Assembly (NCBI GenBank): GCA_049287025.1
Contig: JBAQFA010000051.1
Location: 65,697 to 129,696 of the forward strand
DNA from: Candidatus Magasanikiibacteriota bacterium
GTDB taxonomy: Bacteria > Patescibacteriota > Patescibacteriia > Magasanikbacterales > UBA922
DNA: 64,000 nt
Direction of reading: 5' to 3'
The notes beneath the pieces are model-generated. The model ran no database searches. It worked only from the letters and a program-made list of their open reading frames with translations, and was not told the origin of the DNA. A program made the translations under genes and the position numbers. Positions 5,459 to 64,000 of this stretch are shown one piece after another. How positions within the stretch are numbered: the first letter of the stretch is position 1; every line of letters begins with the position of its first letter.

Positions 5459-5540
5459 GCCCAGGTGGCGAAATTGGTAGACGCACTACCTTGAGGTGGT
5501 AACGCCGTAAGGCATGGAGGTTCGAGTCCTCTCCTGGGCA
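5459..5540 (+). tRNA. tRNA-Leu (anticodon GAG), type II with long variable arm
   Basis: Acceptor GCCCAGG/CCTGGGC. Anticodon loop TTGAGGT. Variable arm GCCGTAAGGC. T-arm GGAGG-TTCGAGT-CCTCT. Discriminator A. CCA is not encoded. Confidence 0.85.
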
Positions 5541-5543
5541 CAA

Positions 5544-5582: not shown

Positions 5583-5999
5583 TTCATTACATAGTAGATG
5601 ATCAATCTTCGACTTTATGTTGGAGGTAGGAAAGTCCGAACATTCACCCGATGTAAATTGGGTAATAGAGTAGCGGGTAACTCCCGTCGGTCGCGAGACT
5701 AGAGGTGCGAGCAGTGACGCCGAGACGCGAAAGTGTCGAGGCACCACGTAAAAGCGTAAGCTTTTCACGTGGTGAACTCTGATAGTGATATCAGAGGTGA
5801 AACGGCAAAATCCTTACTTGAATGAAAGAACAGCCTTTCGATTCACTTCGTTCGCTTAGAGCAGACTAATTATTGGATGCTTTGGGCGAATGAAGTGCAA
5901 TTTGATTGGACAAGTTAGTTCGCTTGACCCAGCTGGTAACAGCCTGGGCAGATAAATGATCGTCCTAGACAAAATTCGGCTTATAGCTATGTAATGAAC
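5583..5999 (+). ncRNA. rnpB: RNase P RNA (bacterial type A)
   Basis: 13-bp P1 helix: gttcattacatag at 5583-5595 pairs with ctatgtaatgaac at 5987-5999. Conserved 'GGAGGTAGGAAAGTCCGAACA' (P4 5' strand) and 'ACAAAATTCGGCTTATAG' (P4 3' strand, cf. ACAGAAcCCGGCTTA). Locally GC-rich with no ORF. Confidence 0.85.
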
Positions 6000-6086: not shown

Positions 6087-6135
6087 GATTTATTCCTTAT
6101 TCCCTGCCTGCGCAGGCAGGTTTATTCCTTACTCC
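6087..6135. repeat. 18-bp perfect palindrome cctgcctgcgcaggcagg flanked by direct repeats tttattccttaYtcc (family B palindromic element, intergenic copy)
   Basis: Perfect palindrome at 6103-6120. Flanking 14-15-bp direct repeats at 6087-6101 and 6121-6135. Related copies lie inside CDSs at 6694, 16525 and 18300. Confidence 0.5.
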
Positions 6136-16364: not shown

Positions 16365-17585
16365 GTGATAAATTATAGCTATATGAAAATAGGTATTGAC
16401 GCTAGAATGATGGGTTCAAAACAAGCTGGTTTAGGACGTTATGTTGAACAGCTGGTTTTGGGTTTATTGGAACAGGACAAAGAGAATGAATATGTACTGT
16501 TTACAAACAACGGTAACACACCATGTCTGCCTGCGACGGCAGACACCCCACTCAAGAGGGGATTTAAAATTGTTGAAGCAAACATACCTTGGTACAGCTG
16601 GCAAGAACAGACAAAATTTAAAAAAATAATTGATAGGGAAAAAATTGATTTAATGCATTTTCCTCACTGGAATGTGCCGTTATTTTATAATAAGCCATTT
16701 GTCGTCACGGTGCATGATTTGATTATGTACCATTATCCTCGGCAAGAGGCGAGTACTCATGGGCCGTTTGTTTATTGGCTGAAAGATTTAGGACATCGCC
16801 TAGTACTTAATCACGCGGTACAAAAAGCCAAGCATATTATTGTGACGAGTGAATTTACCAAGCAGGATTTACATCAGACCTTGGGAGTTTCATTAGAAAA
16901 AATGACTGTGACTTACCAAGCACCGTTTCAAAACACGATTCATGATTCACATAACACGACACAAGTTTTAAAAAAAAATAATGTTGAAAAACCATACGTT
17001 TTGTATGTTGGGAATGCTTATCCTCATAAAAATTTGGAAGGATTGTTAAAGTCTTGGAAAATTTTTAATGAAAAATATGGCAATGAATACCAATTAGTTT
17101 TGGTTGGCAAAAAGAATTTTTTTTATGAAAGACTTTTGAAAGATCAAAAGATTGAAAGATCAAAAGATCAGGAAGAAAAATCAGGATTTTCCGATCTTCC
17201 GATCTTCCGATCTTCAATTATTTTTACTGATTACGTCACAGACAATGAACTATCCCAACTATACGTCAACGCTTCACTCTACGTCTTCCCTTCACTCTAC
17301 GAAGGTTTTGGTTTACCACCACTCGAAGCACAACAATATAATGTGCCAGTGGTTTCTTCCAGTGCTAGTTGTTTGCCAGAAATATTAGGCGAGTCGGCGT
17401 TGTATTTTGATCCAGAGAATTATGAACAAATGGCGGAGGTGATTTATACTGGTTTGACTAATGAAGATATGAGATTTGAATTAAGACAAAATGCGAGAGA
17501 AAACCTAAAACGTTTTAATTTAAATAATATGATTAGTCAGACGTTGTTGATTTATAATAATATTGTTAAATTATTACATTATTAA
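16365..17585 (+). CDS. Glycosyltransferase family 4, carrying in-frame repeat insertions
   Basis: 406 aa. 'VFPSLYEGFGLPPLEAQQYNVPVVSSSASCLPEIL'. Contains a family-B palindrome (16525-16544), a family-A element (17137-17216) and a 12-nt direct repeat (17273-17301). Confidence 0.8.
   Translation: MINYSYMKIGIDARMMGSKQAGLGRYVEQLVLGLLEQDKENEYVLFTNNGNTPCLPATADTPLKRGFKIVEANIPWYSWQEQTKFKKIIDREKIDLMHFPHWNVPLFYNKPFVVTVHDLIMYHYPRQEASTHGPFVYWLKDLGHRLVLNHAVQKAKHIIVTSEFTKQDLHQTLGVSLEKMTVTYQAPFQNTIHDSHNTTQVLKKNNVEKPYVLYVGNAYPHKNLEGLLKSWKIFNEKYGNEYQLVLVGKKNFFYERLLKDQKIERSKDQEEKSGFSDLPIFRSSIIFTDYVTDNELSQLYVNASLYVFPSLYEGFGLPPLEAQQYNVPVVSSSASCLPEILGESALYFDPENYEQMAEVIYTGLTNEDMRFELRQNARENLKRFNLNNMISQTLLIYNNIVKLLHY
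17137..17216. repeat. Family A palindromic element inserted in frame in the GT4 gene
   Basis: gaaagatcaaaagattgaaagatcaaaagatcagga ... tccgatcttccgatcttccgatcttc. Encodes 'LKDQKIERSKDQEEKSGFSDLPIFRSS'. Confidence 0.5.
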
Positions 17586-22884: not shown

Positions 22885-22961
22885 AAAAAAACACGATACA
22901 AAATACACTTATCACTACACAAATAATATGTATCGTGTTATGTGTGTCATGTATCGTGTTT

Positions 22962-37336: not shown

Positions 37337-38503
37337 ATGAACACATCAGACTTTGACTACAATTTACCTTTAGAATTAATTGCACAAAAACCAGTAGAGC
37401 CACGAGATTATTCACGGTTGTTTGTGGTTGATAGAAAAGAAATAGGAAAAGATCCTTCGGCGAAGTTTACCCCGATGAATATCGGGGCTCAGGACAAGCA
37501 TTTTTATGATATTATTGATTATCTAAAACCAGGTGATTTGATAGTTTGGAATAATTCCAAAGTTTTTAAAGCTAGATTATTTGGTGAATTAGAATCAACC
37601 AATAATCAAGAATTGTTTGAACATAAAAAAAAGATTGAAGTGTTTTTAGTTAGAGAAATGGAAAATAAAGGCGTATGGAAAGTTCTTGCTAAACCCGGTC
37701 GGCATGTGAGAGTGGGTATGAGAATTAGATTTTCAGAAGACTTTTATTGTGATGCTATGATTAAAGATCCAGAAGGAACTATTCTAGTGCAATTTCCATA
37801 TGATGCCGAGACAGTTATGAAGAAGGCGAATAAATATGGTCATATTCCAGTACCGCCATATGTAAAAGACGAACCAGATCAAATTGAAACTTACCAAACT
37901 GTTTATGCCAAAGACGAAGGGTCGGTCGCAGCACCAACAGCTGGTTTTCATTTTACCAAAGAACTAATTGAAAAGATAAAAGCCAAAGGCGTGGAGTTTG
38001 CTGAGGTGACTTTGCATGTTGGACTTGGAACTTTTTTACCAGTGAAATCAGAAAGAGTAGAAGATCACACTATGCATAGCGAGTGGATAGAATTGTCACA
38101 AGAAAATGCAGATAAGATTAATAAAGCCAAAGCTGAAGGTAGACGGGTGGTGGCGGTTGGTACTACGACTGTAAGAACTTTGGAAGGTGTGGCGCAAAAG
38201 TTTCTCCCCCTACCAGGGGGAGTTAGAGGGGGTCTGCAACCAGAAGGACCCCACCCAACCTCCCCTTATAGGGGAGGAGCTGTTCATGCCTACAAAGGAG
38301 ATATTAATATTTTCATCACCCCAGGTTTTGAATTTAAAGTTGTTGACGCAATGATTACTAATTTTCATTTACCAAAGTCTACCCTACTTATGTTAGTGAG
38401 TGCGTTTATTGGTGATCGGGAAAAGACTTTGGAAATATATAATCAAGCTGTGGCAGAAAAATATCGATTCTTTAGTTTTGGGGATGCAATGTTTATACAT
38501 TAG
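37337..38503 (+). CDS. queA: S-adenosylmethionine:tRNA ribosyltransferase-isomerase, with an ~28-aa in-frame insertion
   Basis: 'FDYNLPLELIAQKPVEPRDYSRL', 'VGTTTVRTLE', 'ITNFHLPKSTLLMLVSAF'. The insertion 'LPLPGGVRGGLQPEGPHPTSPYRGGA' is encoded by three GC-rich hairpins (38204-38277). Confidence 0.85.
   Translation: MNTSDFDYNLPLELIAQKPVEPRDYSRLFVVDRKEIGKDPSAKFTPMNIGAQDKHFYDIIDYLKPGDLIVWNNSKVFKARLFGELESTNNQELFEHKKKIEVFLVREMENKGVWKVLAKPGRHVRVGMRIRFSEDFYCDAMIKDPEGTILVQFPYDAETVMKKANKYGHIPVPPYVKDEPDQIETYQTVYAKDEGSVAAPTAGFHFTKELIEKIKAKGVEFAEVTLHVGLGTFLPVKSERVEDHTMHSEWIELSQENADKINKAKAEGRRVVAVGTTTVRTLEGVAQKFLPLPGGVRGGLQPEGPHPTSPYRGGAVHAYKGDINIFITPGFEFKVVDAMITNFHLPKSTLLMLVSAFIGDREKTLEIYNQAVAEKYRFFSFGDAMFIH
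38204..38277. repeat. Three consecutive GC-rich palindromes inserted in frame in queA
   Basis: ctcccccta-ccagggggag at 38204-38222, ggggtc...gacccc at 38229-38252, cctcccc-ttata-ggggagg at 38259-38277. About 65% GC within a 35% GC gene. Confidence 0.55.
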
Positions 38504-39111: not shown

Positions 39112-39603
39112 ATGTGTAGTCGAGAAGTAGACTTAAGTTTTGGAGAATTGGCTAGAAAAATAAAGTATGGGCCAAGACCTAGTACGGAAAAAATAGAACA
39201 AGATTTTTTTGGGGAAGGAAAAGAGCTTCCCCAGTCTTTTTTGGATAAAGTGACAGATTTTTTAATTAGAGAGGATCACTACTCGCCTAGACCAGGACAC
39301 CACAGAGTCTTCGATTCCATTTTTATGTTAGAAGGTCATAAAATTTTGGTTCACTATATATTGAGAGAACGTTTTGACCATAAGAATCAAACAGATGATT
39401 TGTTAACACATGATGGTATGGGCTATATTAGGATAGGAGAAGGAGAATTGCATAATAGTATGATAGAAATTGATGATAAAAATCCAGAAGTGGGAGAAAG
39501 AGAGACGCTGGGTCTAACCGATGATAATTTGGTTAAATTAATTAGGAAAGAGATGATCACTTATCTACGTAGTCTTGGAGAATTAGCTTTTAAAGAAAAA
39601 TAA
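39112..39603 (+). CDS. Hypothetical protein
   Basis: 163 aa. No recognisable domain. Confidence 0.45.
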   Translation: MCSREVDLSFGELARKIKYGPRPSTEKIEQDFFGEGKELPQSFLDKVTDFLIREDHYSPRPGHHRVFDSIFMLEGHKILVHYILRERFDHKNQTDDLLTHDGMGYIRIGEGELHNSMIEIDDKNPEVGERETLGLTDDNLVKLIRKEMITYLRSLGELAFKEK

Positions 39604-41661: not shown

Positions 41662-42885
<1,224 letters not shown>

Positions 42886-44471: not shown

Positions 44472-46505
44472 ATGATTGATTTTCAACAAGAACTAAATGA
44501 TGAACAATTAAAAGTCGTTACCAATGGTGATGGACCTTGTTTAGTTTTGGCTGGGGCGGGATCTGGTAAAACACGCACGATTACTTATCGCGTAGCCTAT
44601 TTATCAGAACAAGATGTAAAGCCAGAAAATATTTTACTAGTAACTTTTACGAATAAGGCAGCACGGGAAATGCTAGAGAGAGTAAAGGTGTTAACTGGTG
44701 GTGATATTCATTTGCCATGGGCGGGGACGTTTCATCATATTGGTTATAGATTACTGAAAAAATATGCGACTCTGATTGGCTACAAAAATAATTTTTCTGT
44801 ATTAGATAGTGAAGATAGTTTGGATTTGATTAAACTTTGTCTTAAAAATGAAGGTATTGATCGAAAAGAAAAACGATTTCCTTCCCCAGCTGTGGTTCAG
44901 GCAATTATTTCTTATGCGCGGAATTCAGAAACCACGATTGCTGATGTTTTGGATTTGAAGTATGAACATTTTTTATATATCAGTGATATAATTGTTAGAA
45001 TTGCTGAAGATTATCAAAAAAGAAAAATAGCTGCGAATGTGATGGATTTTGATGATCTACTGGTGAATTGGTATATGTTGTTAGTTAAGGAACAAGGAGT
45101 AAGGAGTAAGTTAGCCGAACAATTTGAATATATTTTGGTTGATGAATATCAGGATACAAATAAAATTCAGGCCTCAATAATAAATTTATTAGCTTCTAAA
45201 CATAATAATTTATTGGTCGTGGGTGACGATGCTCAGAGCATTTATTCTTTTCGAGCGGCTGATATACAGAATATCTTAGCGTTTGAAAAAAAATATAGTC
45301 AAGCTAAAATTTTTAAATTGGAAACTAACTATCGCTCTACGCCAGATATTTTGGATTTGGCCAATGATATTATCGCGAATAATCTAAAGCAATATGAAAA
45401 GAATTTAAAAGCCATTAATACTAATTTTACTAAACCAGAACTGATTGCTTTTGCTAGTCAGGCCGAAGAAGCGCAATTTATAGTGCAAAGAATTAAAGAA
45501 TTGGAAAATGAAGGTATAGACCTAAATAAAATCGCCGTATTATTTCGTGCAGCTTATCATTCCCAAGCTTTGGAAATGGAACTGGTAAAACGGGGGGTTG
45601 ACTATGATTATCGTGGCGGAGTAAGATTTTTTGATCGAGCGCATGTCAAAGACGTTTTGGCTTATTTGCGGATTATAAATAATATTGCCGACGAGGTGGC
45701 TTGGCGGAGAGTTTTAAATATGCAAATTGGCATCGGCCCAACTTGGGCAGAGCGGATACTGTCATTAATTATTCAGAATCCAGAATTAGCAAATGACCTG
45801 TCTCATGTTGGTGCACAATTGCCAGCCAAAGCTCAGGTAGGGTGGAATGATTTTTTACAGATTTATGAAAGATTAATGTTAGTTGAAAATAAAAATCCAG
45901 GTGATCTTATTCTTGCAGTATTAGAATCTAAATATACAGAATATATTGAAAATGAATATCCAGATTATCGTGAACGTTTGGAAGATATAAAACAATTATC
46001 TTTATTTTCAAAAAATGAAACCGAACTAGATAAGTTTTTGGCTGAGGCTACGTTGCAAGAGAATTTTCGTTCACTTACCCCCGGCCAATCTCTCAAAGAA
46101 AGAGAGGAGAAAATTGTTCTTTCTACGATTCATCAGGCCAAGGGTTTGGAATGGGAGGCAGTGTTTGTGTTGGGTTTGTCAGCTGGACAATTTCCCAATG
46201 ATCGGGCTTTGCGTGAGCGTGATGGTATAGAAGAAGAAAGGCGTTTGTTTTATGTAGCAGTCACTCGCGCTAAAAAATATTTATATCTTACATATTCATT
46301 TGGTGGTGGATGGGGTGATTCTTTGGCTGGACCAAGTATGTTTATTGATGAGCTTAATAAAAAATTAGTGTCGGCCGAAGGTGTTGGAGGAGGAAATGTG
46401 TTTGAAGATTTTGATGATGAAGTGGAATATATAGATGAAGATTCTCAAATTATAGATAGTAAAAAGTTTCCTGGGAGTTTTTTGAAAGATTTGGGTGAGT
46501 TGTAA
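44472..46505 (+). CDS. ATP-dependent DNA helicase, UvrD/PcrA/Rep family
   Basis: 677 aa. Walker A 'LAGAGSGKTRT', 'LLVTFTNKAAREM', 'LVDEYQDTN', 'VGDDAQSIYSFRAAD', 'STIHQAKGLEWEAVFV'. Confidence 0.85.
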   Translation: MIDFQQELNDEQLKVVTNGDGPCLVLAGAGSGKTRTITYRVAYLSEQDVKPENILLVTFTNKAAREMLERVKVLTGGDIHLPWAGTFHHIGYRLLKKYATLIGYKNNFSVLDSEDSLDLIKLCLKNEGIDRKEKRFPSPAVVQAIISYARNSETTIADVLDLKYEHFLYISDIIVRIAEDYQKRKIAANVMDFDDLLVNWYMLLVKEQGVRSKLAEQFEYILVDEYQDTNKIQASIINLLASKHNNLLVVGDDAQSIYSFRAADIQNILAFEKKYSQAKIFKLETNYRSTPDILDLANDIIANNLKQYEKNLKAINTNFTKPELIAFASQAEEAQFIVQRIKELENEGIDLNKIAVLFRAAYHSQALEMELVKRGVDYDYRGGVRFFDRAHVKDVLAYLRIINNIADEVAWRRVLNMQIGIGPTWAERILSLIIQNPELANDLSHVGAQLPAKAQVGWNDFLQIYERLMLVENKNPGDLILAVLESKYTEYIENEYPDYRERLEDIKQLSLFSKNETELDKFLAEATLQENFRSLTPGQSLKEREEKIVLSTIHQAKGLEWEAVFVLGLSAGQFPNDRALRERDGIEEERRLFYVAVTRAKKYLYLTYSFGGGWGDSLAGPSMFIDELNKKLVSAEGVGGGNVFEDFDDEVEYIDEDSQIIDSKKFPGSFLKDLGEL

Positions 46506-48565: not shown

Positions 48566-48670
48566 CAGAGGATGCTCAGTTTCGGCCAAAGGCCGACCAG
48601 CCTCTGGCTGGGGTTAGAGCGTCCCGATTTTACATCGGGAAGGTCAGAAGTTCAACTCTTCTCGGGTCTA
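48566..48670 (+). other. Partial tRNA-Val duplicate lacking a 5' acceptor strand, with the anticodon arm replaced by hairpin tcccga-ttttaca-tcggga (UUA anticodon-like loop)
   Basis: 48613-48670 repeats GGTTAGAGCG ... AGGTCAGAAGTTCAACTCTTCTCGGGTCTA, the exact 30-nt 3' end of tRNA-Val. The preceding 48 nt contain the hairpins tcggcc-aaa-ggccga and agcc-tct-ggct. No sequence pairs with the 3' acceptor strand. Confidence 0.4.
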
Positions 48671-48758
48671 CTAGGGCTTTGCTTATACTATGCCCTATAA
48701 ATAGTTTACTACTTGAAAAAATTTTATAAGTGTAGTATACTCCTTTTACTTTTTATAA

Positions 48759-48835: not shown

Positions 48836-48945
48836 AAACACAGTTGGACAAAACTGTGTTTTAATTTACAAAAAAGATGCTTAGTAATGAGATTCTCGGA
48901 GCGAAGCGAAGATCCCGATTTTTATCGGGACTGGATTGCCCACCA
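48836..48945 (+). other. Terminator hairpin, then a second tcccga-tttttat-cggga hairpin fused to a 15-nt copy of the tRNA-Ile 3' end (ctggattgcccacca)
   Basis: aacacagtt-ggacaaa-aactgtgtt followed by T4 at 48836-48868. 48909-48945 reads gatcccgatttttatcgggactggattgcccacca, then the hairpin ccgtcc-aaaata-ggacgg. Confidence 0.4.
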
Positions 48946-49024
48946 AGCCGTCCAAAATAGGACGGTTTTAAATTTGATTTTTTTGGGAAATAGGTATATA
49001 ATTGATTTTACATTAATTTATTTT

Positions 49025-54020: not shown

Positions 54021-54027
54021 TTAGTTT

Positions 54028-57000
54028 ATGAAAGGTTTAAAAAGCAAAATTTTATTTAGTTTCTTAATTGCAGTTTTTTTAATTGGAGGCTTTTTGTGTG
54101 TTTCTAATTTTGCTTTGGCTCAAACAGATACTTTGGGTTTAAACTCAGTTGGCGATAATATTGCCTTAGCTGGGACTGATATTAGAGTAATTGTTGTTAA
54201 AATAATCCGAGCTCTTTTGGGGTTATTGGGGATCATTGCTTTGGTAATAGTTTTGTATGGTGGCTACGTATATATGACTTCGGGCGGTAATGAAGAAGAA
54301 ATTGGTAAAGCAAAAAAGATTTTGATAAACGGTGTAATTGGATTAATAATTATTTTCTCGGCTTTTGCGATTGTCCAATTTGTTTTGAACAAATTGGCCG
54401 ATGCTACTGGTCTTAATGATAATAATATATCCAAACTTTGTTCTGATCCAAATTATGCTGTATTACATCATGACCAATGTTATCCAGATAATTGGTGTCA
54501 AGATCTAACTGATTGTTGTGAAAAAAATAGTTTTGTTGTAAAGAGTATTACCCCAAACACTGATTCCACTAATATGAATAATGTGTTGGTTAGAGTAGTG
54601 TTTAGTGGTCGTATTCAGTATAATTCTGGTGATGTAAAAATTTATAAAAGTGGTAAAGACATTTCTACTGATTTTGAGTTTAGTGTGGTAGGTTCTAGTA
54701 GTAAAGACGAAAATTCAGTGATTGAGGCTAGATATAATGGTCAAGAAGTCTGTGATGAAGGTGGAAAATGTCTGCCGTCTGGTGAATATAAGGTAGTTGT
54801 TAGCCCTGACATAAAGGATCTGTCAGGTAGACAAATAACCAAAGATACGGCTTGTGGCACCTATTTCTTAGAAGCCAGTTTCCAAGTTAATACAGGGGAG
54901 TTTGCTGGTTATTATCATTTAGATGGTACAACTAGTAGTTTGTATATTACACCGAATACAGTTCATCCTTTGTTAAATGACAAAGTGACAGTGGGGGTAT
55001 GGGTAAAAGTAAATGGTCCAGCTATAGATAGTTGGGTAGATGCTACGAGTGGTAAGACTGTAACATCTACAGCGGGTTGGGTTATATCCAGCGAAGGTTT
55101 TGGAGTAGAGTTGATGGCCAATCTTAATGCTAGTAATACTGTCAATATAGCTGGTGGAATTATGGATGCAATTGATCCAATAGTTTCGAATGGAAAAGGT
55201 GGATACTCGTCTCATCCCAGAACTAATACTACAGTGGTGACAGATAAAAAGGTAAATGAGTGGTTTTATGTGTCAATGACTTATGATGGTAGTATTATAA
55301 AATTATATATTAATGGTGAATTTAAAAAATCAGTTGTTCAGACCGGTCCGATAAAACAATCTAAAACAAGATTTAGTATTGGGTCTTTGGATAATTTACG
55401 TTATAATTTTAATGGTGACGTGGATGAAGTTCATGTTTATAATAAAGTTTTAACGCCTCAACAGATAACACAAAATTATAGTGGCGGTCTTGGTCGGTTG
55501 GATCATTTTAGTTTAGTTCAAGACGGTATTATCCTAAATTTACATTTTGACAAGACTGATGATTTGACAGATTATTCTACCTATAAACATGTAGTGAAAA
55601 ATAATAATGCAATTTGGGTAAATGCTACTACTGAACCAGGTGTTGATAAAGGAATAAAAAAAGATATAACGCCACCTAATTTAGAAAATATTATTATTGA
55701 TGGTAAAGTGTCTAGTAATGGTCAATTGTATCGAGGTCGAACTTATAGTTTTAAAACTAGACTATCTGACAACAGTGGGGCGGGTTTGGTGCGTTTTTCA
55801 TTAGACAAAATAAAGTCTGGTGATGTTTTGGAACGAAATTTAAATTCTTATGGTGGACCTAGAATAAATAGGGTAGGTGGTTCTGATGCTCCACCGAGTA
55901 ATAAATATGATTATCACTATGCACTATATTTACCTTTGGTTTCCACGGCTCTACAAGATTACCAAGTGACTTTGGAAGGTTGGGATATTGATAGTAATAG
56001 TACGATTGTGACTACTACGTTTAGAGTAATTGGTGAACATTGTGACAATGAAGTGCAAGATGGTGATGAAACAGGTGTGGATGTGGGTGGTTCTTGCGGT
56101 CCAGGTAGAGATGGTGCTTGTAAAAATGATATTGACTGTGCTCCAAATTATAAGTGTGTAAATAATTTTTGTGTACCTAGTCCATTGATTACTGATGTTT
56201 TGCCAATGCGAGGTGCAGGTGGTAATTGGGTCACAATTCTTGGTAAAAATTTTGGTGATAGTGGAAAAGTGTATTTTGGAGCAGACACAGTTGGTAATGC
56301 TCAATATAATGGTCCATGGAATTGGTCTGAAGTTAGTCTGGTTGATTGTGGTGGTTATGATACTTGGCATAATAGTTGGATAATTTTTGAAGTACCAGAA
56401 GGAGTAATAAATGATTTGTATAATATTAAAGTAGAGAGGGCTGATAATGGTTTATCTGATACTACTAGGGATAATATTGGCCCAAGACCAAATGAAATTG
56501 GTTTGTTTGTAAAAAATGATACTAAGAGTCCAGGGTTGTGCCAAGTTGGAGTAGACATAAATGATAATGATATCCCATATGGAGCAGTTGTGGCCACAAG
56601 AAATACCCCAATATTTTTGGTTGGTAAGTCATTTGGTGATACTACCAAATCTGGTAGAGCGGTAATGTTTGGTGGTTCTTATGATGCTCTCCAAGGGAAA
56701 TTAACTGGGGGACTTCAAGCTCTGATACAGACCAATGGTTGGAATGATGCTCGGATTAATTCTTTTGTTCCTAGGAATTCTCAATATGGTAAACAGTCAG
56801 TTTATGTGACAGTTGATGGTCAGGCTAGCAATGGTTTACCATTTACAGTGGTAGATAAAGATGGTTTGTCTGAGCATACCCCAGTGATTGAAGAGATTAG
56901 TCCAACCTCCACTACGCCTGGCAGTTTAATAACTATTTTTGGTAAAAATTTTGGTGACATGCCAGGTAATATTTTTGTGGCCAAAACTAAAGCTGATGCT

Positions 57001-60000
57001 TTGAGTTGTAATGTGGATTCACCCCAAAATAAATGTATAAGGCTTTACAATCAAAATGACACTGAATTTCCAGAAAAATGTGATAATACCTGGAGTGATG
57101 ATCAGGTAGTGGCTAAGGTACCGGGTGGTTCTTGGCTTGATAGGCCTATAGTAGCCCCAGAATCTGGTTATCAGGTAACAACTAGCACTAACAATAGAAT
57201 ATTTAATATAAATTCTTTGCCAGCGGATGAAAGTGTTTTGAAATCGGCTTTAGATTTTTCTTCGCCATTTACTTTGGAAATAAAATTTAAATTGGACAAA
57301 TTACCAGCATACCATCAAACAATAGTAGATTCGAGTGATTGGCCTTATCCACATTTGAGATTTGATGGGGTAGATGATTATGTAGAAGCACCAGGGTTAG
57401 ATTTGACTGGTAAGTCTTTTACTGTGGAATTTTTTGCTAAACGTGGTGCTATAAATAGTGGTGACGATTTTATTATCGGTCAGGGGATTAGTGAAAGTTA
57501 TAAAGGATTACAAATTGGTTTTAGACCAAATAATAAATTTACCTTTTCGTTTTGGTATTCAGACGTTGATACTCCTGCTTACACTGATTTGGATTGGCAT
57601 CATTGGGCGGTTACTTATGATAAAGATATACACAAAAAAAAGATTTATAGAGATGGGATATTAATTTTGGAAAATATAAATCCTAACGGCTATATTTACA
57701 CCGCTGGTAGTAAATTAAATATTGGTGGGTGGGTAGATGATGTCTACGGTAATCGTTGGTTCAAAGGTGGTTTAGATGAATTGAGAATATTAGACAGAGT
57801 TTTGTCTCAGCAAGAAATCAGTGAGGATGCTGCCAAAATAAATACTGGTGATAGTTATGTTTTTAGAAATAATGTTTTGCTCTGGTATCACTTTGATGAT
57901 AGTAGTGAACTAGTTGTTGAAGATAAATCTACTTATGGTAATAATGGTACTCTAAAAAATGGCGTTGTTCGTGCCGGTTGGGGAAGTGGTGGCTCGAGAG
58001 GCATATATGAAGGTATCGTCGGTAGAGCGGGAAATTATGGATTTATATTTCCTTTTGTTGATGATAAACCAGTTTTTTGTTTTGCCTTGCCAACTGTTGG
58101 TGTTGAAAATGTGGAACCAATATGTAGTATCCAAACAGTTAGAGTTGGAGAAACTTACCATTATGTTATTACTTGGGATAAAGATAGGGGGGCAATAAGA
58201 TTGACTGATTCTGGTGGTCATAGTGAAACAGCTTTTGCAACTGGTTTAGATTTGAGTCAAGATCAATTTTTGATTGGTAAATTTGTGACTGATAACAGTG
58301 AAGCAACGATTGAATATTCGTTGAATAGGTTAAATATTTTGCCTGGTTCAGCTTTGTTTGATAATGATGTAACCAGCCTTTTTAATAATAATAATCGTCC
58401 TGGTTGGTCAAATTTAATGACTAAGTCTGGAATTATTTCCACCGACTTAACCGGTGGTGAAATTACCCCAACAAATGGCCTAACTGCTGGTAAATTTTAT
58501 ACAGTTTTAAGACGTTATGATGGTCTAAGTAGTTTAGGTGATGATAATTTTGATATAACAGATGGTCCAACCAAGCCTGGTTTGTGCAAGTTGACGCCAA
58601 ATAGTGGGTTGTCTCCATTACCATCAGGTCAATATTTAACTTTGAATGGTGAGGGTCTTAGTTCCAACGTTGATCCAGTTGTTTATTTTTGGCAAGTAGG
58701 CTCTGTGGCGGGTAACTATAGTACCTGGCTTGGATCTAATAGAGATTTGTATAATGGTGCGCCAGTTTTACACAGAACCTCAACTAACGAGATTGAGACT
58801 GCTATCCCGGTGTCTTCTCTTGGTAATAGTTTGTCAAATCCAGGGGACATAAAAGTTGTTGTAAATGGTCAAGATACTAATTCTCTACGTTATCAATTAA
58901 GTGATTGTACCCAAGCGAGTGAAGTTGAAGCTAATGTTATGTCAAGTTCAAGTTATCATTGCTGTTCTACTCCTGACTCAAGAGATTATGGTTTGTGGAA
59001 AAATACAGTTTGTGATGGTGACACTGTTAGTGCTGGTTATGTGTGGCGTTTTACCAATGGTAGAATAATTACCGCCCCATTTGTTTTGGAACGTTGTGAT
59101 GCTGTTTCTATACCTTCGCCCTCACCTAGTTTGATAAATACAGAAGACGCGAGAAATGCTTGTCCAAATGCTATTATAACAACGGTATTTTCTAGACCCA
59201 TGAATAGTTCAACCTTGGTTGCGAGTAATGTGAAAGTTTATACTTGTGGTAGCACGGAGTTTGGTAGTATTGATTGTGATACAAATAAAGTTGATGTCAC
59301 AAGTAATTATGCTTTTGTTGTAGAAGGAGAGAGTGTTTTAAAATTAAATCCACCTGCGTCAGGTCATACCACCAATACTTGGCATCGAGTGGAATTATCT
59401 AGTAATATTGAATCAATTGAAGAAATTGATGAATTTGACAGTCAGAGATTGGTTGGTCAAAAATTAAAAGCCACCAGACCTTTATCACGGACTAATATTG
59501 CTTATCACTTTGATTTTAGAACCGGGGCAACCAATTGTAAATTAGTCGGAGCAAATATTGAACCAAATCTTTACTCAGTAGATTATCTTGGTAAACTCCA
59601 GGATCGTCGTTATCTTTTTGACAAGAGCACTAATGCTCTGTATCATCCGGCCAATCCTTTATATTTATTTATCAATGGTCGAGCAGATCAGGAATGTACA
59701 AATATTAGTGCCGAAGGTTATCCTTGGCAGTGGAATCCACGTTATCCAAATTATAATAGTGATACACCACCGGCTACTATACCCACTGATGTAGCTACAG
59801 CAACTGTACAGTTAGCACCGTCTTCTGGTACTTCAACACCTATTTATACCAATACCAGAGCTACAGCCATTGGTTGGCATGAGGGGTTGGGTAATTTATC
59901 AGTTAGTACAATTGTTTCTTCTTCTGTAGCTGGTGATTCTGATAAAGTAATAACAGCTACTTCGGCTATATCAATTATTTTAGGTCCACCACGGGTGACA

Positions 60001-63000
60001 TATTATGAACCAAATTGTTCCGAAGCTTGTATTAATGGCAGCCTTAGAATTGGTTTTAGTCGACAAATGAAAGTGGATACTTATAATGATAGTAATGGTA
60101 TAAAAATGTACAAGTGCGCTAATGCTAATTGTTTATCAGATCAACTAACGGCAGTAGATAGTAGATATTATGAGGTTGATTCCGATGCTTCTACTAATTG
60201 GGAAATGATTGTACAGATGGTAAGTTCCTCACATTATTTAGAGCCAGATACAAATTATAAAGTTGTTTTAAATGGTTATTATAATTCTGGTGTTTATGTT
60301 AGTAGCACTGCAATACAGGGTCTGACTGAGTTATCTGGTATTATTTCTGATAACACCATTAGTCTAATACCGTTTCAGTGGCAATTTAAGACTGAAGCCG
60401 GTGGCGTGGTTTGTAAGGTAAATAGAATTGAGACTGAACCTGTAAATATTTATCATAATTATATTGGACAAAAATCACTAGTAGTAGCCAATCCCTATAG
60501 TAGCCCAAATGAGTGTAGCGCGACTGGACAACTTCTAAATCGTTGGGATTATGGTTATACTTGGAGTTCAGCTAACGGTTCAATCGCTTCGGTGTCTAAT
60601 TTTAATTATAAAGCTTCTTGGCCAGATTTTTGTGCAATGGATTGCTTACCAAAGGGGAGTGATATCTCTTCTAGTACTAATAATATTGGTTTGTCAGTCT
60701 GTGGTAATGGTACAGTTGATTTGGGAGAAGATTGTGATATTGCGCGTGCCGGTGAGGTCATTGGTGTGTCTTGTAGTTTAAGTTGTTTGCGTCCAGGAAA
60801 TAATGTTACAACTGGTACCTCTGGTTTTGTTTGTGGTGATGGCATTGTTAGTTCAACATTGGGAGAACAATGTGAACCGTCTGTTGAGGGTACAGATGTT
60901 TGCTCAAGTAAATGTTTGTTAACTGGTTCTAAACCACAGACTAATGTAGTGGTTTCCGGCGCCTCTATTTGTGGTAATAATAAATTAGAAAAAGGCGAAG
61001 CCTGTGATCCAGAAATTGGTGTTAGTGGTTGTACCAATAATTGTTTGCACACTGGAGCGCAGTTAGCATCTTATTGGTGTGATAGTGATCCAGCCTCGGC
61101 TTTTGCTACTTCTACAATATGTCTTAATGCTCCTAGTGTTTGTGGTAATAATAAAATAGAAAAGGGTGAAGAATGTGAAGTCAATTTGGATAGTACTTCT
61201 TATTTAAGAGTTTTAAATCAAGATAATTATAATGCTGTAAATGGTAGTTCTGGTTTACTTGTAACTAGTGGCACGCCCGCTTATTATTGTTCAGATTCTT
61301 GTTTACTAAAGAATTTGTGTGGCGCGACTTTTATACCAGATAGTTATGGTCATAAATGTAATGCCAGTAGTGATTATTGTAATAATGATTGTACCTTAGC
61401 AGGTTCATCGCCTGTGTATGCGACTTCATCTTTTTGTGGTAATGGTGTAGTTGAAAATGGTGAATCTAATATTTGTGAGGTGACTTCCACTATAGCTGAT
61501 ACTGTCCCTGGTACCAACCCTACCCAAATGGTGACAGCCATTGGTAGTCTGATGACATCTAGTTCCACCCAGGAGACTGATATTCGGGCAAATTTATTTC
61601 AAGATAGTACGATTTTAGGTTCATCCAATTATTATTTGATGTGTGGTTATAATGAGTTTGAAAATCCTGAATCTGATGTATATAATAATTGCCCATCAAA
61701 TGCTAATAATGGCTATGGTGTAGGAACCAATTCTTGTTGTTATGCTAGACCTCTGCGTAAAACTGGTTCAGAATATCCTTTGGATTCAGCTGGTCTGTCT
61801 GGTCCTGGTGTTTGTCGTAATACTTATATAGCGGTTGAGTTTGATGGTTATTTGGATGAAAAGACAGTTAATAAAGATACGGTATTTTTGGCGACTGGTA
61901 TAAATACTAATACTAGTACATACAATTGCTGGTCTGGAAGTAATAATGTGACTGATAAAGTAATTTCTGCTTTAGATTATGTACCAAATTATCTGGTTTT
62001 AGGAGACGGTAGTTTTATAAATAAAAGTTTGGCTTTTATAAAGAACATTTTTGTAAAAATTACAAGATTTTTTGTTGAATTAGTTTATGCATATAGTCCT
62101 GTGGTAACAGATTATGATACTTGGTGCTCACCAAATTTGGTAAAGGATGTTCAGGTAAGTTATAGAGTGGATGCGTCATCTACTACCCATAGTATTATTA
62201 CAAAGTTAGATATACAGTTAAATGCTGTTTTGGAAGCGGAAAAAACTTATGCTGTGGTACTGGTGGGTGGAAAAAGTGGTATAAAAGATAAGTATGGTGT
62301 TGGTATTAAAAACCAGAGAACAGACAGTAATGCTTTAAATGATGGTTGGGTGTTCAAGACCAGAGCTGATATTTGCACATTGAGTCAAGTGGATGTAAGA
62401 CCCGACAATCATCTGTTTACAAGACCATTAACAACCACAACCTTTGAAATTTTTGGTATTAGCCAGTCAGCTAATAATCAATTATTACAACCAATTGCCA
62501 ATGTGTATGATTGGAATTGGATTTGGTCGCCGACTACAACTCAATTATTCGATATACCAGTCGCTGGTACTAGCTGGGATAGTAATAATATTATTATTGG
62601 CTCTACCGAATTAGAAGGGGATTTAATGGCTGTTGGTAAAGCAGAAATTGTTAGCTCGACTGATGCAAAAGAGGTTGGGAAAGTTTTGGCAGATACTTTT
62701 GATTTGACAGCGAATTTTTGTGAAAGACCATGGCCAGATTTTAATGATGATGGTACTTGGGAACCATTTAAAGACACTGTTTATAATTTTAGCTTGAGCT
62801 ATTGTGCAGATAAGGGGGCTTCTGGGGATACGAGTGATGATTTACCATTTTTGACTAATTCAGTATTTGTCACCAGTAGCGATCCAGCCAATTTGAGTTT
62901 TGCTGCGTCCACTGGTACTTTGAAAAGGTTTTTCTTATTTAATGATAAAAATGATGATGTAATTGGGATTCAAATTTTTAGCAATGAAGATGGATTGGAT

Positions 63001-64000
63001 GTTGATAAATGGTACAAAGCTCAGCCGTTTGCTGGTCAAAAAACTTTGACAACTGGTAGAGTGGCTAATTACCCAGCTTTGGTAGATGAAAATAATTATT
63101 ATGTAAATGTTTTGAATATTGATGAAGCTACTAATATTACCTATAGCAATATTTATTTGTTCAGTCTTAATAAAGGAGCGCAAAAAAATACTAGAACAGT
63201 TTTTGAAAAATTAGTCCTGGACTCACTCAAGTTTAATATAAACCTAACTGATTTTGGTTATTGTTTGCGTTCCAGTGCTGATCTTTATGTTTCACCTTAT
63301 AATTATATAGAAAAAGAATGTGATACAGATTTTGATTGTCGTGATAGTTTTGGTGTGCCTCTCACCAACGCCAATGGAACTTGTTCCAATGTTAAAACCA
63401 AAATATTTAGAGATTTGGATAGACTAAATGATATAAAAGAAATTCAAGGTATTTTTGATAAGTTTAAAGCTGGTTCAACAATGTACCCTGATCTAAAAGG
63501 TGGTACTTATATCCCAGGCTATACCAATTCCAAATGGTCTTCTTGGGGATTATTGGCAAGTAAAATAAACAGTGGCTTACCATCAGACCCCTTAAACACC
63601 TGGGTAGGTTGTGATAGTAATGCCGAACAGGGTACCTGCTGGAATGCAGTTAGTTCAACTTTTTATTGTCCGCATTTTGCCAGCATCTATGAATACAAAG
63701 TAGCCACTTCTACCAATACTTTTTTGTTCCATGTACCATTAGAATATTTCAAACCTTGGTATGGGGTGTCTAGCCACTATGTTTCACCGACTGGTAGTTA
63801 TTCATTTGACAGACTGTGTGAACCTGATTTTTCTTATAGTCCATTTGGAGCCTCTTGTGGTGATGGAGTGGTAAATAGTAATGAAGAATGTGATCCACCC
63901 GGTTCAATGCGAGTAATCGCTAGTACTACCCAGGGTTTTGTGGCGACTTCTACTTGTAGTGATACTTGTATGTGGAGTGATAATAATTTTTATGAAACAA
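54028..64000 (+). CDS. Giant surface protein (>3300 aa, 3' end beyond window): double-TM pilin-like N-terminal module, LamG/ConA-like lectin domains, IPT/TIG domains, Cys-rich CGNGxxExGExCD repeats
   Basis: ATG at 54028, frame 1. The ORF track lists no frame-1 plus-strand ORF anywhere in 54028-64000, and codons read sensibly at 56191, 58561, 63301 and 63991. N-terminus 'IRVIVVKIIRALLGLLGIIALVIVLYGGYVYMTSGGNEEEIGKAKKILINGVIGLIIIFSAFAIVQF'. LamG-like 'EWFYVSMTYDGSIIKLYINGEF' and 'HHWAVTYDKD...IYRDGIL'. IPT-like 'ITDVLPMRGAGGNWVTILGKNFGD' and 'IEEISPTSTTPGSLITIFGKNFGD'. Cys repeats 'CGNGTVDLGEDCD', 'CGDGIVSSTLGEQCE', 'CGNNKLEKGEACD'. Confidence 0.7.
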   Translation, partial: MKGLKSKILFSFLIAVFLIGGFLCVSNFALAQTDTLGLNSVGDNIALAGTDIRVIVVKIIRALLGLLGIIALVIVLYGGYVYMTSGGNEEEIGKAKKILINGVIGLIIIFSAFAIVQFVLNKLADATGLNDNNISKLCSDPNYAVLHHDQCYPDNWCQDLTDCCEKNSFVVKSITPNTDSTNMNNVLVRVVFSGRIQYNSGDVKIYKSGKDISTDFEFSVVGSSSKDENSVIEARYNGQEVCDEGGKCLPSGEYKVVVSPDIKDLSGRQITKDTACGTYFLEASFQVNTGEFAGYYHLDGTTSSLYITPNTVHPLLNDKVTVGVWVKVNGPAIDSWVDATSGKTVTSTAGWVISSEGFGVELMANLNASNTVNIAGGIMDAIDPIVSNGKGGYSSHPRTNTTVVTDKKVNEWFYVSMTYDGSIIKLYINGEFKKSVVQTGPIKQSKTRFSIGSLDNLRYNFNGDVDEVHVYNKVLTPQQITQNYSGGLGRLDHFSLVQDGIILNLHFDKTDDLTDYSTYKHVVKNNNAIWVNATTEPGVDKGIKKDITPPNLENIIIDGKVSSNGQLYRGRTYSFKTRLSDNSGAGLVRFSLDKIKSGDVLERNLNSYGGPRINRVGGSDAPPSNKYDYHYALYLPLVSTALQDYQVTLEGWDIDSNSTIVTTTFRVIGEHCDNEVQDGDETGVDVGGSCGPGRDGACKNDIDCAPNYKCVNNFCVPSPLITDVLPMRGAGGNWVTILGKNFGDSGKVYFGADTVGNAQYNGPWNWSEVSLVDCGGYDTWHNSWIIFEVPEGVINDLYNIKVERADNGLSDTTRDNIGPRPNEIGLFVKNDTKSPGLCQVGVDINDNDIPYGAVVATRNTPIFLVGKSFGDTTKSGRAVMFGGSYDALQGKLTGGLQALIQTNGWNDARINSFVPRNSQYGKQSVYVTVDGQASNGLPFTVVDKDGLSEHTPVIEEISPTSTTPGSLITIFGKNFGDMPGNIFVAKTKADALSCNVDSPQNKCIRLYNQNDTEFPEKCDNTWSDDQVVAKVPGGSWLDRPIVAPESGYQVTTSTNNRIFNINSLPADESVLKSALDFSSPFTLEIKFKLDKLPAYHQTIVDSSDWPYPHLRFDGVDDYVEAPGLDLTGKSFTVEFFAKRGAINSGDDFIIGQGISESYKGLQIGFRPNNKFTFSFWYSDVDTPAYTDLDWHHWAVTYDKDIHKKKIYRDGILILENINPNGYIYTAGSKLNIGGWVDDVYGNRWFKGGLDELRILDRVLSQQEISEDAAKINTGDSYVFRNNVLLWYHFDDSSELVVEDKSTYGNNGTLKNGVVRAGWGSGGSRGIYEGIVGRAGNYGFIFPFVDDKPVFCFALPTVGVENVEPICSIQTVRVGETYHYVITWDKDRGAIRLTDSGGHSETAFATGLDLSQDQFLIGKFVTDNSEATIEYSLNRLNILPGSALFDNDVTSLFNNNNRPGWSNLMTKSGIISTDLTGGEITPTNGLTAGKFYTVLRRYDGLSSLGDDNFDITDGPTKPGLCKLTPNSGLSPLPSGQYLTLNGEGLSSNVDPVVYFWQVGSVAGNYSTWLGSNRDLYNGAPVLHRTSTNEIETAIPVSSLGNSLSNPGDIKVVVNGQDTNSLRYQLSDCTQASEVEANVMSSSSYHCCSTPDSRDYGLWKNTVCDGDTVSAGYVWRFTNGRIITAPFVLERCDAVSIPSPSPSLINTEDARNACPNAIITTVFSRPMNSSTLVASNVKVYTCGSTEFGSIDCDTNKVDVTSNYAFVVEGESVLKLNPPASGHTTNTWHRVELSSNIESIEEIDEFDSQRLVGQKLKATRPLSRTNIAYHFDFRTGATNCKLVGANIEPNLYSVDYLGKLQDRRYLFDKSTNALYHPANPLYLFINGRADQECTNISAEGYPWQWNPRYPNYNSDTPPATIPTDVATATVQLAPSSGTSTPIYTNTRATAIGWHEGLGNLSVSTIVSSSVAGDSDKVITATSAISIILGPPRVTYYEPNCSEACINGSLRIGFSRQMKVDTYNDSNGIKMYKCANANCLSDQLTAVDSRYYEVDSDASTNWEMIVQMVSSSHYLEPDTNYKVVLNGYYNSGVYVSSTAIQGLTELSGIISDNTISLIPFQWQFKTEAGGVVCKVNRIETEPVNIYHNYIGQKSLVVANPYSSPNECSATGQLLNRWDYGYTWSSANGSIASVSNFNYKASWPDFCAMDCLPKGSDISSSTNNIGLSVCGNGTVDLGEDCDIARAGEVIGVSCSLSCLRPGNNVTTGTSGFVCGDGIVSSTLGEQCEPSVEGTDVCSSKCLLTGSKPQTNVVVSGASICGNNKLEKGEACDPEIGVSGCTNNCLHTGAQLASYWCDSDPASAFATSTICLNAPSVCGNNKIEKGEECEVNLDSTSYLRVLNQDNYNAVNGSSGLLVTSGTPAYYCSDSCLLKNLCGATFIPDSYGHKCNASSDYCNNDCTLAGSSPVYATSSFCGNGVVENGESNICEVTSTIADTVPGTNPTQMVTAIGSLMTSSSTQETDIRANLFQDSTILGSSNYYLMCGYNEFENPESDVYNNCPSNANNGYGVGTNSCCYARPLRKTGSEYPLDSAGLSGPGVCRNTYIAVEFDGYLDEKTVNKDTVFLATGINTNTSTYNCWSGSNNVTDKVISALDYVPNYLVLGDGSFINKSLAFIKNIFVKITRFFVELVYAYSPVVTDYDTWCSPNLVKDVQVSYRVDASSTTHSIITKLDIQLNAVLEAEKTYAVVLVGGKSGIKDKYGVGIKNQRTDSNALNDGWVFKTRADICTLSQVDVRPDNHLFTRPLTTTTFEIFGISQSANNQLLQPIANVYDWNWIWSPTTTQLFDIPVAGTSWDSNNIIIGSTELEGDLMAVGKAEIVSSTDAKEVGKVLADTFDLTANFCERPWPDFNDDGTWEPFKDTVYNFSLSYCADKGASGDTSDDLPFLTNSVFVTSSDPANLSFAASTGTLKRFFLFNDKNDDVIGIQIFSNEDGLDVDKWYKAQPFAGQKTLTTGRVANYPALVDENNYYVNVLNIDEATNITYSNIYLFSLNKGAQKNTRTVFEKLVLDSLKFNINLTDFGYCLRSSADLYVSPYNYIEKECDTDFDCRDSFGVPLTNANGTCSNVKTKIFRDLDRLNDIKEIQGIFDKFKAGSTMYPDLKGGTYIPGYTNSKWSSWGLLASKINSGLPSDPLNTWVGCDSNAEQGTCWNAVSSTFYCPHFASIYEYKVATSTNTFLFHVPLEYFKPWYGVSSHYVSPTGSYSFDRLCEPDFSYSPFGASCGDGVVNSNEECDPPGSMRVIASTTQGFVATSTCSDTCMWSDNNFYET

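Follow-up and report, generated by a model that had tools for sequence, protein, structure and literature searches.

How does an intact gene for a tRNA-modification enzyme come to carry three G/C-rich hairpins in frame? The question is raised by queA in a 64-kb stretch of a Candidatus Magasanikbacteria genome (candidate phyla radiation (CPR)/Patescibacteria; 34.5% GC), referred to below as the window. The hairpins make up a 74-nt segment that, with a probability we put at roughly 0.7, is a non-autonomous dispersed palindromic repeat, similar in behaviour to the Rickettsia palindromic elements (RPEs) and tolerated in a permissive loop of the QueA protein. We compared this segment with related loci (designated by L numbers and read over at most 21 kb each), with QueA orthologs and with metagenome contigs. 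The host gene and the parts of the element are as follows.

37337..38503, + strand: queA, encoding S-adenosylmethionine:tRNA ribosyltransferase-isomerase; intact open reading frame (ORF), 388 aa
38204..38277, + strand: palindromic element of 74 nt, two inverted hairpin-bearing ends with a central stem-loop
38204..38222, + strand: hairpin 1 (left end), CTCCCCCT-acc-AGGGGGAG, perfect 8-bp stem and 3-nt loop
38223..38228, + strand: left spacer TTAGAG, kept in canonical copies at other loci and in other phyla
38229..38252, + strand: hairpin 2 (centre), GGGGTC-12 nt-GACCCC, 6-bp stem; the variable spacer of the doublet
38253..38258, + strand: right spacer ACCCAA
38259..38277, + strand: hairpin 3 (right end), CCTCCCCT-tat-AGGGGAGG, perfect 8-bp stem and 3-nt loop

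The product of the host gene matched the Pfam family PF02547 (Queuosine_synth) over profile positions 1-322 of 322 (E=1.9e-124), and was identical to an NCBI protein annotated as QueA from Candidatus Magasanikbacteria. The solved QueA structures 1VKY (E=4.7e-93), 1YY3 and 1WDI were all retrieved from the PDB with E<=5.6e-78, and an AlphaFold2 model of the protein matched QueA crystal structures in Foldseek with an E value of about 1e-31. A preliminary description of this DNA had called the enzyme essential, which overstates its importance, since queA is dispensable in model bacteria. The same description had placed three G/C-rich hairpins in frame at 38204-38277 and had contrasted about 65% GC there with 35% in the gene. 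Coordinates, sequence and peptide proved to be as claimed, and we measured 63.5% GC for the element, against 36.3% for the remainder of queA and 34.5% for the window.

The element begins at codon phase 0 and its 74 nt correspond to residues 290-314, LPLPGGVRGGLQPEGPHPTSPYRGG; from the open frame, we predict a read-through peptide containing LPLPGGVRGGLQPEGPHPTSPYR. Its two inverted modules, CTCCCCCTaccAGGGGGAGTTAGAGGGGGTC on the left and GACCCCACCCAACCTCCCCTtatAGGGGAGG on the right, each combine a small G/C hairpin, a short spacer and a G5/C5 run, in that order, and the entire segment can also be read as a single imperfect palindrome with 28-nt arms. Folding of the DNA strand gave three hairpins (-22.7 kcal/mol, z = -3.1), and the minimum-free-energy fold of the RNA was one rod (-46.3 kcal/mol, z = -3.4). 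A 16-mer from the element had no other match in 100 shuffles. Read from the sequence, four of the six frames are open through the G/C-rich modules, and the length of the element ranges from 74 to 110 nt across copies. In Rfam, the element had no match at the gathering score and only chance-level matches at E<=10; a protein search with the translated element, padded to a 56-aa query, returned no match. We considered an intron, an intein or a known structured RNA, and rejected these candidates: there is no Rfam family, and an insert of 25 residues is too short for an intein.

Why would such a segment be tolerated in QueA? The preliminary description had counted about 43 residues, instead of the usual 15 or so, at the position of the insert; this was near enough, since we found 41 residues between LE and IFI in the window QueA and about 16 in the Thermotoga protein. 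Alignment of the window QueA to the Thermotoga and Bacillus QueA structures was interrupted exactly at the insert, which, relative to 1VKY and 1YY3, lengthens the stretch from TTVRTLE to the (I/L)FI strand by about 25 residues. We then aligned the 120 closest QueA proteins, all of which are from CPR bacteria and which are 62-76% identical. Among these orthologs, the stretch from TVRTLEG to GDINIF spans between 9 and 50 residues, 79 of the 120 have extra residues in the loop (0-33 aa), and about 29 carry an insert of the same kind as the window element. Thus, the alignment identified the segment as an insert within a hypervariable loop. Turnover of this loop is abrupt: orthologs that are 93-95% identical elsewhere bear unrelated loop sequences. 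For example, the queA DNA of L213 shares about 87-95% identity with that of L214 in 60-nt bins on either side of the loop, but from GAAGG to GGTGAT no relationship is left: one gene has the G/C element and the other AT-rich low-complexity sequence. The comparison of orthologs establishes that the loop is permissive.

The structural model is consistent with this. With 111 orthologs in its alignment, AlphaFold2 gave a model with an overall predicted local distance difference test score (pLDDT) of 81.7 and a predicted template-modelling score of 0.80. Residues 295-310 were modelled as coil with pLDDT <50, lying between a helix (276-288) and a strand (319-323), so the insert falls within a low-confidence coil, and we take the loop that receives it to be, by prediction, surface-exposed and structurally unconstrained. 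The earlier suggestion that a palindromic insertion tolerated in such an enzyme is unusual holds in general but not for this lineage, where such inserts are common: besides the roughly 29 orthologs of 120, the window queA itself contains a second hairpin insert (described below). We also considered a rule by which the loop attracts its inserts as hairpins, and discarded it, since ten further variants of the loop showed no folding advantage over shuffles (z between -1.4 and +2.2).

We retrieved ortholog DNA for 11 queA genes with a full element and for one that retains hairpin 3 only. Hairpin stems were parsed copy by copy with custom scripts; MAFFT left the hairpins out of register. The order hairpin 1-spacer-hairpin 2-spacer-hairpin 3, with perfect stems, was found in 10 of the 12 parsed copies and also in L213. 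The stem of hairpin 1 is maintained in 11 orthologs by compensated variants (CTCCCCCT/AGGGGGAG, TCCCCCCT/AGGGGGGA and CCTCCCCCT/AGGGGGAGG), and that of hairpin 2 likewise (GGGGTC/GACCCC, GGGGTTT/AAACCCC, GGGGTCT/AGACCCC and GGGGGTGTT/AACACCCCC). The loop-proximal part of the hairpin 2 stem differs among orthologs and yet remains self-complementary. The arms of one copy pair better with each other than do arms swapped between orthologs; for hairpin 2, pairing extends over 7.0 contiguous bp in the former case and 1.1 contiguous bp in the latter. The loops of the element vary freely, with a central loop of between 4 and 31 nt. These copies establish that the stems have been conserved. Fourfold-degenerate sites of the window queA are only 23-44% identical to those of element-bearing orthologs, and are therefore saturated; unconstrained sequence of equal age would be unrecognisable.

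What is conserved is not the peptide. Depending on the ortholog, hairpin 1 is translated as LPLxGG, SPYxGE or PPxRGE, such that all three frames are used; hence, the conserved entity in the queA insert is the nucleic-acid palindrome. It could be argued that this lineage has instead acquired a Pro/Gly-rich loop under protein-level selection, as a flexible linker or an interaction motif, with the palindrome being incidental, and the pattern LPLxGG...SPxRGG does recur in about 22 orthologs. However, selection on the protein would not account for one DNA yielding different peptides in three frames, nor for synonymous positions that stay G/C in an AT-rich genome; moreover, untranslated copies exist, and the loop is predicted to be disordered and is freely replaced. 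We regard this explanation as highly improbable. Those orthologs with a similarly long Pro/Gly-rich segment all encode the same three hairpins; we found none in which such a segment is encoded without them. We would give even less credence to an artefact of assembly or sequencing, such as a chimeric join or adaptor-like sequence. All of the sequences come from assembled metagenomes, and sequencing through G/C hairpins is difficult, but at least 12 independent assemblies (NCBI, JGI and ENA) have the element in frame at this one site, with compensated differences that are specific to each ortholog.

Is the element confined to queA? The preliminary description had proposed a search for other copies, and we found them in a tRNA-Lys/tRNA-Arg spacer, in tgt, in uvrD and in many metagenome contigs. 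The spacer between tRNA-Lys and tRNA-Arg in L083 contains a full copy (2990-3075) that is 95% identical to the window copy outside the central loop, and that also retains the spacers TTAGAG and ACC(C/T)AA. No copy occupies the corresponding tRNA spacer of the window (22885-22961), L007 or L084; that of L008 contains hairpins 1 and 2 only, and the two halves flank what appears to be a native spacer hairpin. The copy in the queA gene of L083 is more diverged, with an identity of 0.81 to the tRNA-spacer copy of the same locus, indicating that two copies of different age, one old and one young, coexist in one genome. A glycosyltransferase gene in L206 ends in a full copy, which supplies its final 12 codons and its stop codon. 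Single hairpins occur in frame in tgt (two in L083, three in L007) and in uvrD (L083, L084 and L207). The inserts in tgt (L007 16300-17110; L083 12670-13400) are separate, two to three per gene, and in frame; each pairs a C/G hairpin with a module, GTCGACACGAGCGAAGCGAGTGCGGGA (peptide ..RSTRAKRVRE), that is repeated twice within one gene. The tgt (41662-42873) and uvrD (44472-46502) genes of the window have no such inserts.

We surveyed 411 kb of Magasanikbacteria DNA for hairpins of the form C4-8T..AG4-8 and detected 37, compared to 0-1 in shuffled sequence. Queried by location, 23 are in queA, 8 in other genes and 6 between genes, bearing in mind that queA loci are over-represented by sampling. 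Repetitive extragenic palindromic (REP) sequences are by definition extragenic; here, the window copy, 23 of 23 queA hairpins and 8 of 14 non-queA hairpins are intragenic. The similarity of elements does not track that of their hosts. The window copy has an identity of 0.95 to the L083 tRNA-spacer copy and 0.91 to the L213 copy (QueA identity 0.75), compared to 0.80 to the copy in L081, which has the QueA most closely related to that of the window (QueA identity 0.81). Taken as a whole, element and host similarity were not significantly correlated (Mantel r = 0.10, p ~0.19). A neighbour-joining tree of the 120 QueA orthologs was star-like, with a patchy distribution of carriers, and the sister pairs L082/L206 and L084/L207 have variants in common.

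To what extent is the element found beyond these bacteria? Using the pattern AGGGGGAG-NNN-GAGGGGGT, we identified the core motif in at least 120 metagenome contigs, with GC contents between 0.28 and 0.73. The CTCCCCCT arm, which is outside the scan pattern, lies just upstream in at least 80 matches, and the complete three-hairpin form is present in at least 13; several contigs have two copies. Among the 80 arm-bearing matches listed, 67 are extragenic and 13 lie within long ORFs. We scanned nine of these 13 host ORFs against Pfam, and all nine are ordinary conserved genes.

In-frame metagenome hosts: LpxD, nucleotidyl transferase (NTP transferase), thioredoxin-reductase-like flavoprotein and peptidase U32
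In-frame metagenome hosts, continued: ATP-grasp/citrate-binding protein, ketoacyl synthase and CysRS
In-frame metagenome host PBP1: copy between the transglycosylase and transpeptidase domains
In-frame metagenome host MetH: copy between the B12 cap and the B12-binding domain

Copies occur in both orientations relative to host genes, and the ORFs adjoining metagenome copies (118 ORFs) are housekeeping genes with no recurrent partner. Among plasmids, we found matches of 33 nt with 97% identity in the narG-narH spacer of Moraxella osloensis, and weaker matches in Pseudanabaena and Planktothrix. Two scans of viral contigs gave 0 and 1 motif matches, with no sign of a phage vector, and a BLAST search of phages with the element returned chance matches only. 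Our search of the literature found no published description of in-frame palindromic repeats in Patescibacteria, nor the core sequence in print. The copies outside queA, at tRNA spacers, in other genes and on metagenome contigs, establish that the segment belongs to a repeat family, one that is apparently unnamed and has an unexpectedly wide distribution. Likewise, the alignment, the non-queA copies and the AlphaFold model support the original proposal that a palindromic insertion has been tolerated in frame at the DNA level.

The extent of sharing bears on whether the hairpins could instead have been made in situ, by template switching during replication (fold-back copying) where the loop is slippery. 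Indels and low-complexity expansions cluster there, every hairpin evolves as a separate self-complementary unit, and the halves of the L008 element flank an apparent native hairpin, all of which would suit such an origin. Yet template switching cannot yield 95% identity, spacers included, to a tRNA-spacer copy in another genome. Nor does it account for a 30-nt motif shared by at least 80 unrelated contigs and by Moraxella and cyanobacterial plasmids, or for 63.5% GC that is foreign to a 36% GC gene. We consider local manufacture of the hairpins very unlikely.

Several observations weigh against a mobile repeat as the source of the queA insert. The three-hairpin element is present only once in the 64-kb window. 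We saw no target-site duplication at the queA, tRNA-spacer or metagenome copies, although any from old insertions may have been lost by decay. Apart from a TT that recurs ahead of hairpin 1, we saw no conserved motif at the insertion sites. Among 46 window ORFs, we detected neither Y1_Tnp nor any other family of transposases, and no transposase was enriched among the 118 ORFs beside metagenome copies. The queA copies all share one site and one orientation, and two sister pairs share variants, such that one old insertion fits as well as repeated insertion; a single old insertion into queA, later lost or replaced in places, is plausible. A purely selfish, lineage-bound repeat does not explain the exact conservation of spacers across phyla, and translation of the insert is predicted from its open frame.

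Some of these points suit a different explanation, in which a single ancient insertion has been kept because the structure of its nucleic acid serves the host, so that the element is domesticated rather than a passenger. Candidate functions would be an mRNA stability or processing signal (e.g. an RNase III site), an inter-domain translational pause or a protein-binding DNA site. Consistent with domestication, the queA copies share site and orientation, the stems are perfect despite saturated neutral sites, all three stems have compensated changes, sister orthologs have variants in common, the RNA fold is very stable (-46.3 kcal/mol, z = -3.4), and the spacers TTAGAG and ACCCAA are conserved even across phyla. 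However, the element is absent, truncated or replaced in most orthologs, including some that are 93-95% identical elsewhere, and hence QueA does not need it. Other copies are found in both orientations, in many unrelated host genes and between genes; no Rfam family corresponds to the element; and likeness between elements does not, on the whole, mirror that between hosts (Mantel r = 0.10). Perfect stems could also be produced by templated correction of quasi-palindromes. We therefore think a host function in queA unlikely, without dismissing it.

Under the preferred reading, that of a dispersed repeat tolerated in a permissive loop, a copy of the repeat would have entered queA as DNA, in the loop that links the conserved GTTTVRTLEG helix to the GDINIF strand. 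Its strand could fold as either three hairpins or one long rod, and it may have spread as single-stranded hairpin DNA through an enzyme acting in trans. Our best guess for that enzyme, a doubtful one, is a Y1/HUH transposase (RAYT or IS200-type). The insert would survive in queA because it occupies an unconstrained surface loop, because its G/C-rich sequence has few stops, being stop-free in most frames, and because changes in the length of the central loop can restore the frame. Transcription and translation of the element would then yield a disordered Pro/Gly-rich loop with no specific contribution to QueA, making the insert probably neutral for the enzyme. Templated correction of quasi-palindromes is a known mutational bias, and the perfect stems of old copies may have arisen by such correction from arm to arm, by selection on the fold, or by both.

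The element is not the only insert in the window queA. A second one, closer to the start of the gene, has a different hairpin as its core.

37454..37498, + strand: second in-frame queA insert, core DNA; 13 residues (36-48), with ..DPSAKFTPMNIGAQDK within residues 36-54
37470..37487, + strand: hairpin CCCCGAT-gaat-ATCGGGG, core of the second queA insert

This insert, which the solved structures lack, corresponds to a 13-residue gap in the alignment to 1VKY, and 110 of the 120 orthologs have no extra residues at the same position; it is predicted to be disordered (pLDDT <50 for residues 43-52). A family of hairpins of the form CCCGAT-N4-5-ATCGGG has three copies in the window (37470-37487, 48623-48639 and 48914-48929), compared to 0 in 100 shuffles, and was not found in the related loci. 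The two copies other than that in queA adjoin tRNA-Val and tRNA-Ile. In the tRNA-Val region (48567-48671), the 3' 31 nt of the tRNA are duplicated at 48641-48671, directly after the hairpin, and in the tRNA-Ile region (48839-48947), 17 nt of the 3' end are duplicated at 48931-48947, again directly after the hairpin. ARAGORN called 48599-48671 as 'tRNA-Stop (tta)', and the Rfam tRNA model gave only 20.8 bits; this looks like a degenerate copy of tRNA-Val produced by hairpin elements inserting at tRNA ends, and not like a suppressor tRNA.

The flanks of the second insert, CCTTCGGCGAAG and CTCAGGACAAG, resemble the DNA of a 'PSTSSGQA / LRQAQDK' element in other QueA orthologs. In several orthologs (P0004, P0006, P0007, P0014, P0021, P0026 and others), PSTSSGQA or PSASSGQA occurs at two sites, and a third has TLRQAQ(DK). 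When back-translated, PSTSSGQA and LRQAQDK appear to be two frames of a single DNA string, CCTTCGACAAGCTCAGGACAAGC; in DNA, only the LRQAQ reading was confirmed (CCCTTCGACAAGCTCAGGG, L081 4770-5918), with a related interrupted copy in L205 (10001-11251). At a fourth QueA site, 'DRLAGRSPSEGREF' is present in 14 orthologs, and the ortholog P0021 has four different inserts in QueA. We conclude that small repeats within coding sequence are a general habit of these genomes.

Other hairpins and unusual features were observed elsewhere in the window. A glycosyltransferase gene (16365-17585) has adjacent G/C hairpins at 16524-16561, TGTCTGCC..GGCAGACA and CCCC..GGGG, with the in-frame peptide TPCLPATADTPLKRG. 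We did not retain this double hairpin as a clear insert, since homologs are shorter by only about 5 residues here. CTGCC..GGCAG hairpins of a similar kind occur at 6103-6120 and at about 18300. A small ORF with no Pfam match (39112-39603) includes a perfect 8-bp hairpin in frame, TGGGGAAG-8 nt-CTTCCCCA, at 39210-39233. A gene for a giant protein, with an ORF of more than 3325 codons at 54025-64000, runs past the end of the window. Directly upstream of the RNase P RNA, an 83-nt tRNA (5459-5541) was assigned no anticodon by ARAGORN. The RNase P RNA itself (5586-5999) scored 103.4 bits, with a gathering threshold of 100, and is 414 nt long, compared to 367 positions in the Rfam model; it may carry insertions of its own.

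The queA case shows selfish-looking hairpin DNA carried inside ordinary genes of a bacterium with a tiny genome. In-frame palindromic repeats have so far been treated as a curiosity of Rickettsia, and here a smaller, G/C-rich element is found in a CPR bacterium. Conserved enzymes can harbour such cassettes and swap them at a single loop over no more than about 5% of protein divergence. The element thus provides a concrete and easily searched marker for the spread of hairpin DNA in reduced genomes, and its perfect stems, set against saturated neutral sites, offer natural data on selection versus self-templated correction of palindromes. There is also a warning for annotation: Pro/Gly-rich segments of the form 'LPLxGG..SPxRGG' are derived from a repeat, and are not functional motifs. 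A broader possibility, which we put forward tentatively and think rather less than even odds would favour, is that the element represents an undescribed, cross-phylum, G/C-rich family resembling REPINs (doublets of REP sequences that form hairpins), with the core CTCCCCCT-loop-AGGGGGAG-TTAGA-GGGGGT. Such a family would routinely colonise coding sequence in frame, above all in CPR genomes that are small and AT-rich, would have its hairpins actively maintained across divergences at which neutral sites are saturated, and would, along with other small repeats, drive a rapid, cassette-like turnover of the surface loops of conserved enzymes (QueA, Tgt, UvrD, CysRS and MetH among them). If this were true, it would amount to a general and previously unrecognised route of protein-loop evolution, and a conserved trans-acting machinery could explain the sharing of sequence across phyla.

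How does the element compare with known repeat systems? Cyanobacterial small dispersed repeats (SDRs) and the GC clusters of yeast mitochondria are small mobile units, G/C-rich or palindromic, that are found in repeats, RNA genes and coding sequence. Both insert in AT-rich genomes without destroying function, and GC clusters occur in frame in var1. The likeness to SDRs and GC clusters is one of analogy only, since organisms and sequences differ. MITEs (for miniature inverted-repeat transposable elements), including ERIC and Nezha, make in-frame fusions, and are short elements with inverted ends and stem-loops (PMC10969869). Like MITEs, the queA element is short and non-coding, has inverted ends and stable stem-loops, and can sit inside ORFs. 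Typical MITEs, however, are AT-rich, with target-site duplications and a recognisable parent insertion sequence, whereas the queA element is GC-rich, has no target-site duplication that we could see, and has no known parent.

REPINs have conserved ends and a less conserved spacer, with compensatory changes and alternative hairpin and 'clover' folds (PMC3116915). The queA element shares with REPINs and with bacterial interspersed mosaic elements an architecture of two inverted palindromic units and a spacer, ends that are more conserved, compensatory changes and two folds; singlets occur as decay products in both, and copies are mostly located between housekeeping genes. REPs are extragenic by definition, usually species-specific, numerous and linked to RAYTs. 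The queA element differs in that it has intragenic, in-frame copies and a core common to several phyla, and we found no RAYT in the window or beside the other copies examined.

RPEs are palindromic repeats inserted in frame in unrelated housekeeping genes at positions compatible with the fold of the protein, and are also found between genes (PMC10969869). The queA element resembles them in being palindromic and dispersed, in lying in frame where it is read as extra peptide at fold-compatible positions, and in having intergenic copies. RPEs are about 100-150 bp long, are restricted to Rickettsia and have a conserved peptide per family, whereas the queA element is 74 nt (up to about 110), is rich in G/C while its genome is AT-rich, uses all three reading frames and has relatives on contigs of 28-73% GC. 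We therefore class the element as one that works like an RPE and do not place it in that group, the likeness drawn here being one of behaviour.

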